Source: Octopus sinensis
Taxonomy: Eukaryota
Assembly: GCF_006345805.1 (NCBI RefSeq)
Contig: NW_021833413.1
Location: forward strand, 1 to 33,937
Direction: 5' to 3'
Length of the DNA stretch: 33,937 nt
In this document: positions 8,261 through 9,127 of the stretch, one piece after another
Numbering within the stretch: position 1 is the first letter of the stretch
Layout of the letters: each line of letters opens with the position of its first letter
Made by a program: the position numbers and the translations under genes
The notes under the pieces: generated by a model
The model's database searches: none
What the model was told of the DNA's origin: nothing
Seen by the model: only the letters and a program-made list of their open reading frames with translations

Positions 8261-9127
8261 ATGTCCAGAACCTGGAAAAGTGACGAACTGGCGTTGTTCA
8301 TGAGAGGATGGCGATGCGCTGACGGAGAAAATCCAACTAACATAATTACGGCTGCGCTGAAGAGCAGCGGATACAAAAGGACGTCAGCTCAAATAGAGCG
8401 GAAGAAGCAAGAATTTATACGCTCCTACGCACTTGTCAGATCGCACATTAACACGCTGGATGCCATCTTTGACATCGAAAAACGCGAACAAAGTAAAGAT
8501 GGCAAGAATGGAGACGCGGGCGCTGATGAAAAAGGTCACCCCCACCTGGTAGACGCCCAGGAAGAAAACTCCAGTGAGAAACCTGCCCGGGAGGTAAACC
8601 CAAGTGCGGGTGCTCCTACCAGCACCAAAAGCCATGGACATGGAGATGAAAGAACAAAAAAAGGAGGAAAAACTAAAACTAAAACTCAGGCAAAACCAAA
8701 AAACGAAACAGCCAAGGATAGAAGCAAACCTAACTATCCATATGCCAAAAAGGATGGAAACAAGCAGCGCACACGGGTATGTAGGTATGGAGAGGAAGGT
8801 GCAGGCTGCCGTTTTGCACATCCGGGACCCTGCCGCAGAAACCAACCACCGAAAGGAAAAGGGATGGACCACGCACCACCTGCCCCAAAACGGAGGTACG
8901 CAGATGTGGTGCGTGCCACAAACCGCCAACGTGTTGTTGAAAGGGCAGCTGCTGAGCAAGAATCTTTTTTGTGCATGGCACAAAAGATTGTACAGCAGCT
9001 AACCTGGCTCCATCAAACTCAAGCTCGCAGATGTGACTACCCACGGTTCACAAGACCACCACAGCAAATAGACCCAAGGTGGACACCACCGGCAACAGTA
9101 TACACCTCACATCGATGCTCCTACTGA
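8261..9127 (+). CDS. LINE ORF1 protein: N-terminal Myb/SANT-like (trihelix) domain, K/E-rich linker, partly deleted CCCH zinc finger
   Basis: This is an open 288-aa frame directly upstream of and overlapping ORF2. It has the pattern W..DE...F...W......I...L..SGYKRT..QI..K...F...Y. Copy C has the full CRFYLRGTCWHGKEGAGCRFAH finger. Confidence 0.75.
   Translation: MSRTWKSDELALFMRGWRCADGENPTNIITAALKSSGYKRTSAQIERKKQEFIRSYALVRSHINTLDAIFDIEKREQSKDGKNGDAGADEKGHPHLVDAQEENSSEKPAREVNPSAGAPTSTKSHGHGDERTKKGGKTKTKTQAKPKNETAKDRSKPNYPYAKKDGNKQRTRVCRYGEEGAGCRFAHPGPCRRNQPPKGKGMDHAPPAPKRRYADVVRATNRQRVVERAAAEQESFLCMAQKIVQQLTWLHQTQARRCDYPRFTRPPQQIDPRWTPPATVYTSHRCSY

Follow-up and report, generated by a model that had tools for sequence, protein, structure and literature searches.

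A predicted Myb/SANT-type domain and CCCH zinc fingers in the ORF1 of octopus CR1 LINEs

ORF1 is the least understood protein of LINE retrotransposons and is commonly regarded as an RNA chaperone. A 33,937-nt stretch of Octopus sinensis DNA (hereafter the window) raises the question of whether such a protein can carry a DNA-binding-type fold as well. A sequence-only reading of the window had proposed that one of its open reading frames is a LINE ORF1 joining a Myb/SANT-like trihelix domain to a CCCH zinc finger, and that this captured domain might steer insertion or regulate the element itself.

The element and the linkage of its two ORFs

Four related LINE copies, A, B, C and D, lie within the window (Table 1). 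Copy B begins with ACTTCCGG, a 5' end common to full-length copies, and closes with the (AAAATC)n tail that is common to 30 3' ends. Its ORF2 contains stops at 9259, 9367 and 11398 and frameshifts near 10186 and 10760, and the copy is therefore dead; its ORF1 measures 288 aa, against ~295–312 aa in intact genome copies. Copy C is 89% identical to copy B from 8749 on, while the family of copy A has full-length copies elsewhere in the genome that likewise possess a Myb–CCCH ORF1. The 21-bp inverted repeat at the 5' junction of copy D may reflect a 5' inversion, a fold-back or an assembly artefact.

Table 1 Features of the window (positions 1–33,937; sequence-based assignments)
Feature	Position	Strand	Remarks
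Copy A (sister CR1 family), 3' part	5..1626	+	75% nt identity (match 38–1583)
Copy B, full-length defective CR1 LINE	6901..12089	+	(TA)n at either flank
Copy B 5' UTR, ~1.36 kb	6901..8260	+	250-bp unit x1.9 at 7480–7965; internal microsatellites
Copy B ORF1, 288 aa	8261..9127	+	ATG 8261, TGA 9125–9127
Predicted Myb/SANT-type (MSANTD/trihelix-like) domain	8261..8485	+	predicted helices 7–19, 25–35, 42–74
Variable low-complexity linker	8486..8779	+	first half acidic, second half basic
CCCH finger remnant, copy B	8780..8821	+	24-nt in-frame deletion past ~8786, second Cys gone
YADVV motif; amphipathic 'SFL' helix, conserved	8897..9016	+	in all families and in non-Myb relatives
Copy B ORF2: APE endonuclease, RT, C-terminal domain	9115..12003	+	ATG inside ORF1 end, 13-nt overlap
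(AAAATC)n 3' tail of copy B	12070..12089	+	then ATAT
Copy C, 5'-truncated, sister subfamily	15127..18660	-	starts inside ORF1 linker, without Myb part
Intact C-x7-C-x8-C-x3-H finger of copy C	18430..18495	-	
Complex tandem units	19975..24181		~306–334 bp
Second short ORF, GIY-YIG-like by eye	21301..21711	-	Pfam gives no match
Penelope-like element	26813..30411	-	RVT_1 and GIY-YIG (Pfam)
Inverted repeat, 5' junction of copy D	31100..31183		21 bp, around a (TA)n tract
Copy D	31162..33937	+	5'-truncated at ORF1 end; 91% identical to copy B

Judged by its sequence, the element belongs to the CR1 clade of LINEs (Jockey superfamily). ORF2 matches Pfam Exo_endo_phos and RVT_1 and is preceded by ORF1, the tail is an (AAAATC)n microsatellite, and 15 of 30 3' ends come from copies starting within 1.5 kb, so that 5' truncation is frequent. 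The alignment file of Martelossi et al. 2023 (PMC10294476) includes O.sinensis_104_LINE, whose RT stretch, compared by eye, equals that of the present family nearly letter for letter; Table S7 of the same paper files that element as Jockey/CR1. With the CR1 LINEs of the O.sinensis_104_LINE cluster the element shares two ORFs, APE and RT, a short 3' UTR and a microsatellite tail; as far as its main text goes, that study classifies RTs only and returns no match for Myb or zinc finger.

The two ORF1 modules are not found together intact in any single copy of the window. An in-frame loss of 24 nt has removed the second Cys from the copy B finger, whose partial deletion the sequence-only reading had noticed, and copy C, which does keep the C-x7-C-x8-C-x3-H pattern, begins inside the linker, without the N-terminal domain; the protein of the sequence-only reading is therefore a composite of two copies. 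This circumstance, together with a weak single-sequence Pfam score, would fit an artefact, namely a chimeric locus or a chance motif in which the Myb-like segment is foreign to the element. A search of the whole genome (2.7 Gb), for which the 5' segment was the query and 40 of 646 candidates were scored, gave 30 loci including the window's own. Among the 29 other near copies, the CCCH pattern is intact in 21, the N-terminal domain and the finger share one frame in 10, and 28 run on into the ORF2 endonuclease. When the sequence of copy C served as the query instead, the N-terminal domain was present upstream at 24 of 30 loci, at 10 of them in frame with the finger. Both modules occur in one frame in 36 of 40 longer loci, a set that was chosen for open frames and is biased accordingly, and three loci (L094, L118 and L121) contain a whole 986-aa ORF2 plus a whole ORF1. 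The junctions to ORF2 in the near copies, the loci found with copy C and the purifying selection described below rule out a chimeric locus, and the likelihood of an artefact of either kind is negligible. The combination of the two modules that had been read from separate copies is thus real, and so is its linkage to ORF2.

A PIF/Harbinger element is ruled out as well, because the neighbour is an APE–RT ORF2 in every linked copy; no link to a DDE transposase was seen there.

The architecture extends well beyond the window. At least six families in this genome have a Myb-type domain, a linker and CCCH fingers, with the SFL helix checked in five of them. A single finger is present in family 1, which has three subfamilies, in family 4 (the family of copy A; RT 77%), in family 5 (RT 70%) and in family 6 (L248, L249), while there are four in family 2 and two in family 3 (RT 42–45% for both). 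Among the five families compared, RT identity goes down to 42%. The tree made for the families leaves out rows under 200 aa, and its row L172, which had picked up a neighbouring family-1 copy, was disregarded.

Nature and conservation of the ORF1 modules

The trihelix-like residue pattern is present in the copy B ORF1 (W5/DE/F13/W17/SGYKRTSAQIERKKQEF), and W5, E9, W17, R40, Q44 and K48 are nearly invariant across families. The best Pfam match of the domain is Myb_DNA-bind_4 (PF13837), which stays below threshold for copy B (E 0.024). The Pfam check proposed by the sequence-only reading gave a divided outcome: family 1 scores 15.5 bits against a curated cut-off of 27 (17 of 21 members match, best E 1e-4), while the cut-off is passed by family 2 (28.7 and 27.3 bits) and by the protein P0032 (29.3), and zf-CCCH is matched above its own cut-off by L091 (23.9 vs 20.5). 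Family 3 scores 24–25 bits singly and exceeds the cut-off in a genome scan. That scan yielded at least 103 PF13837 matches over the cut-off, with 150 of 298 candidates scored; the best 30 of these comprise 5 non-LINE domains and 25 loci of a second LINE family, 20 of which have EN or RT within 1.5 kb. Among longer PF13837 loci, which add a third family, 19 of 20 have EN downstream.

Profile comparison relates the family 1 domain to those of family 2 (96.5%) and family 3 (86.1%). Against the five non-LINE Myb/SANT domains of the same genome, hhalign gave 80.7% for family 1, 95.9% for family 1 together with remote relatives, 95.3% for family 2 and 85.9% for family 3. No column-shuffled control (0/60 per query) and no reversed alignment attained the real profile scores, which rules out a chance motif.

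We further modelled the domain with AF2. The model built on a 26-row alignment, which includes the clearer families 2 and 3 and is thus not independent of them, shows three helices (pLDDT 88.6). Its structural top rows are TEAD4, RAD MYB, DNAJC2 SANT, LUX, ARR1 and GT-1 (Z 7.2–6.5), with RAD MYB matched at Z 7.1 and rmsd 2.6 over 58 aligned residues; all Z values are under 8, the best being 7.2. Foldseek assigned its highest probabilities to the same kinds of fold, yet with E above 0.3, and no single fold match is significant by itself. Fold searches with the first model, which was based on family 1 only (pLDDT 77), returned mostly unrelated matches, and a PDB sequence search started from the Myb alignment brought up no Myb structure. 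In the ESM Atlas, whose matches serve as leads only, the best match reached 0.88 and Myb families 0.80–0.84; a family 2 ORF1 gave no usable match there. In the canonical three-Trp Myb core, the first Trp alone aligns, the second and third being lost; helix 1 contains a further conserved Trp, W17. Basic residues prevail in helix 3 (6 K/R and 2 D/E in 23 residues), which has a long conserved extension at residues 55–70. Since profile comparison, predicted fold and the above-cut-off sister family agree, these sequence and model data indicate that the N-terminal domain is homologous to Myb/SANT domains of the MSANTD/trihelix type, in line with the original proposal. A homologous domain, for which three helices are predicted in the octopus ORF1, occurs in MSANTD/Myb_DNA-bind_4 proteins, the Harbinger Myb-like accessory protein and the GT-1 trihelix; unlike these, the octopus domain heads a retrotransposon ORF1 with CCCH fingers and has lost the second and third Trp.

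The closest solved relatives of the finger are MBNL1 (E 2e-7), CPSF30 and TTP, all of which are RNA binders. Compared by eye, the single finger of family 1 resembles the first of the four-finger array of family 2, while family 3 has two fingers that both resemble the last one (L173:3911–5311, L169:2103–3449, L120:2501–3388).

The Myb domain and the SFL helix are kept by purifying selection. Between subfamilies, dN/dS of the Myb domain is 0.13, 0.16 and 0.28 (intervals below 0.5), that of the SFL helix 0.23–0.26 and that of the linker ~0.5, as calculated by the Nei–Gojobori method on 18 copies with post-insertion decay included. The CCCH segment, at 0.49–0.88 with intervals spanning 1, is uninformative in this respect. 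A large octopus CR1 radiation retains a predicted DNA-binding-type fold in ORF1 under purifying selection.

Comparison with other ORF1 types and relatives

ORF1s of the Jockey/CR1/L2 elements have been sorted into types I–V, of which III and V are PHD-led, with PHD, RRM, CCHC, Tnp22, esterase and zf/lz as the modules of Table 1 in Metcalfe and Casane 2014 (PMC4120745); the consulted text of that paper has no match for CCCH, Myb or SANT. The octopus ORF1s resemble these types, the PHD-led ones above all, in being modular, with an exchangeable N-terminal domain before a module that binds RNA or is predicted to do so. In single-sequence Pfam searches (E up to 0.1), none of RRM, CCHC, Tnp22, PHD or esterase was found in seven ORF1s from families 1–3. 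A Myb/SANT or CCCH ORF1 in a LINE was not found in the literature searched, which includes the accessible parts of PMC13343379, PMC5203782, PMC9115989, PMC12988792 and PMC12859917, while Repbase/Dfam and subscription papers could hold one. The ORF1 type of this octopus CR1 radiation is apparently undescribed, and Myb/SANT domains and CCCH arrays extend the list of ORF1 modules.

Protein searches place the architecture in a wider context. Named homologues are gene models of Octopus bimaculoides, O. vulgaris and O. sinensis, and three further whole ORF1s are ~30–40% identical. A profile of family 2 found 16 proteins, 14 of which form a 458–489-aa type that shares the finger array and the helix. 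Ahead of the fingers, these proteins have a Cys/His region that looks PHD-like by eye (13 of 14 sequences inspected); Pfam and PDB searches of the relatives' Cys-rich region gave no PHD match. Specifically, L250 is a whole LINE of this kind, with an RT 42% and a C-terminal domain 38% identical to the octopus elements, the same CCCH array and the same SFL helix, and it has no match to the Myb profile. Related elements thus do not all have the same N-terminal module: the marine and metagenomic ORF1s (P0037–P0050, L250) share array, helix and ORF2 type with the octopus families, but have a helical N-terminus and the Cys/His PHD-like region where those have Myb. In the PHD-like relatives L250 (1407–4679) and L252 (1539–2036), the ORF2 frame is open far upstream, overlapping the ORF1 end by up to ~270 nt.

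In an RT tree, the non-Myb element L250 groups with families 2 and 3 (support 91/89), and a test for monophyly of all Myb families gives a borderline rejection (p-AU 0.0475). The tree of the Myb domain itself, with a support of 60/46, points to no donor, Harbinger or other. This distribution, seen with a single non-Myb RT in the tree, may result from gain followed by loss, from repeated gain or from ORF1 exchange. The earlier proposal of an atypical ORF1 with a captured domain thus stands insofar as the domain is absent from the types in the consulted text of Metcalfe and Casane (PMC4120745), but the domain is not peculiar to this element: the Myb–CCCH ORF1 is an old, lineage-wide type, with Myb in the slot that holds the PHD-like region in relatives. 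The Myb and PHD-like versions of this slot form a natural domain-swap pair for the question of whether ORF1p acts on chromatin or on target choice.

A separate set of near-identical RT copies on unplaced contigs (L255–L284), ~31% identical to family 1, may represent the 'unknown I clade' of PMC10294476, or may stem from a different organism whose sequence is contained in the assembly.

Insertion targets and possible roles of ORF1

We also examined the insertion sites. ATA follows the tail at 18 of 28 distinct 3' junctions, against a background of 5.6%. Tracts of (TA)4+ occur at 13 of 30 3' junctions and 5 of 15 truncated 5' junctions, and they precede 26 of 30 full-length 5' rows, equal to 22 of 26 distinct places, or 19 of 23 with four similar-looking copies from a single contig counted once. 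These 30 rows come from 70 loci, the remainder of which have no usable 5' end. Background windows contain such tracts at 62/450 and 45/450, the latter value applying to full-length 5' ends. A distant LINE family without Myb match shows the TA motif at 1 of 20 3' ends, and the sister families look TA-flanked by eye, in both cases with crude boundaries. The TA target bias is real and lineage-specific. As (TA)4+ is found at just 5/15 and 13/30 junctions, the nick motif is the short ATA.

We consider it most probable, at roughly 55%, that the CCCH finger packages RNA, the SFL helix oligomerises ORF1p and the Myb domain tethers the RNA–protein particle to DNA or chromatin. According to this scheme, the finger would bind and package the element RNA together with the basic linker, the two taking the place that RRM or CCHC modules have in other types of ORF1. 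Contact of the Myb domain with DNA or chromatin is suggested because helix 3 is basic and conserved; the domain would contact DNA directly, with low specificity, and thereby replace a PHD-type contact to chromatin. Responsibility for the ATA/(TA)n targets would most likely lie with the ORF2 endonuclease and the AT-rich tail, which is the usual arrangement in APE-type LINEs.

The sequence-only reading had suggested that the Myb domain might steer insertion, here by reading (TA)n or ATAT sequence. The R2 retrotransposon offers a parallel: it carries a Myb-type domain in its single RT/RLE ORF, and this N-terminal domain helps select the rDNA site in site-specific rDNA targeting. The octopus elements are likewise non-LTR elements with a putative Myb-type DNA-binding domain, but they are APE elements whose ATA targets are loose, and their domain is in an ORF1 separate from the RT ORF. 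The ATA excess at 3' junctions, the (TA)4+ tracts before full-length 5' ends and the difference between the distant LINE family and the TA-flanked sister families would agree with steering by ORF1. However, the nick motif is short, on the scale of endonuclease or tail specificity, and the distant family differs in endonuclease and tail too, so that the comparison does not isolate Myb and the TA bias is not assignable to ORF1. We therefore hold steering to be rather improbable, and equally doubtful that the CR1 lineage swapped a PHD-like reader for a Myb domain guiding the particle to (TA)n. If true, it would be an APE-type LINE with target choice set by ORF1p, and a driver of an octopus LINE landscape clustered at TA microsatellites.

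The Myb fold could instead be a protein- or RNA-binding module, for example one that holds ORF2p, similar to the role of the Harbinger Myb-like protein towards its transposase, or one that reads histone tails as SANT domains do. The loss of two of the three canonical tryptophans, the long extension of helix 3, the many fold matches to SANT domains of chromatin complexes and the position in the slot of the PHD-like region all point in this direction. Nevertheless, with its basic character and conserved R/Q/K, the recognition helix resembles that of DNA-binding MSANTD and trihelix domains, while SANT domains that bind histones tend towards acidic residues at this place; a protein- or RNA-binding role is for us unlikely, and tethering to DNA or chromatin is preferred.

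The other role suggested by the sequence-only reading was autoregulation, in which the Myb domain would let ORF1p bind the 5' UTR of its element and thereby regulate transcription of the latter. MSANTD and trihelix proteins are transcription regulators, and the long 5' UTR with its duplicated 250-bp unit could offer repeated sites. The 5' UTRs, however, diverge fast between subfamilies while the domain is conserved, which makes autoregulation quite improbable as compared with a tethering function.

Additional observations concern the 5' ends and the annotation of octopus genes. Full-length 5' ends follow (TA)n (22/26) far more often than truncated junctions do (5/15), as seen at 6553–6900 and in full-length copies; the tract may aid transcription or complete insertion, or may travel with the 5' end. 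The element start ACTTCCGG (6901–6908), which we take to be an ETS-like motif, is retained in most full-length copies and is a possible internal promoter start.

LINE ORF1 fragments account for many octopus 'MSANTD' Pfam matches and for some gene models, which calls for caution in annotation. The 25 LINE ORF1s among the best 30 PF13837 genome matches (L131–L180) are not host genes, and octopus MSANTD counts may be inflated by such sequences. Additionally, an O. bimaculoides gene model starts with the Myb domain, and the linker forms the end of an LPIN3 model of O. sinensis (P0005, P0006); these octopus gene models containing ORF1 pieces may reflect mis-annotation or exonisation.
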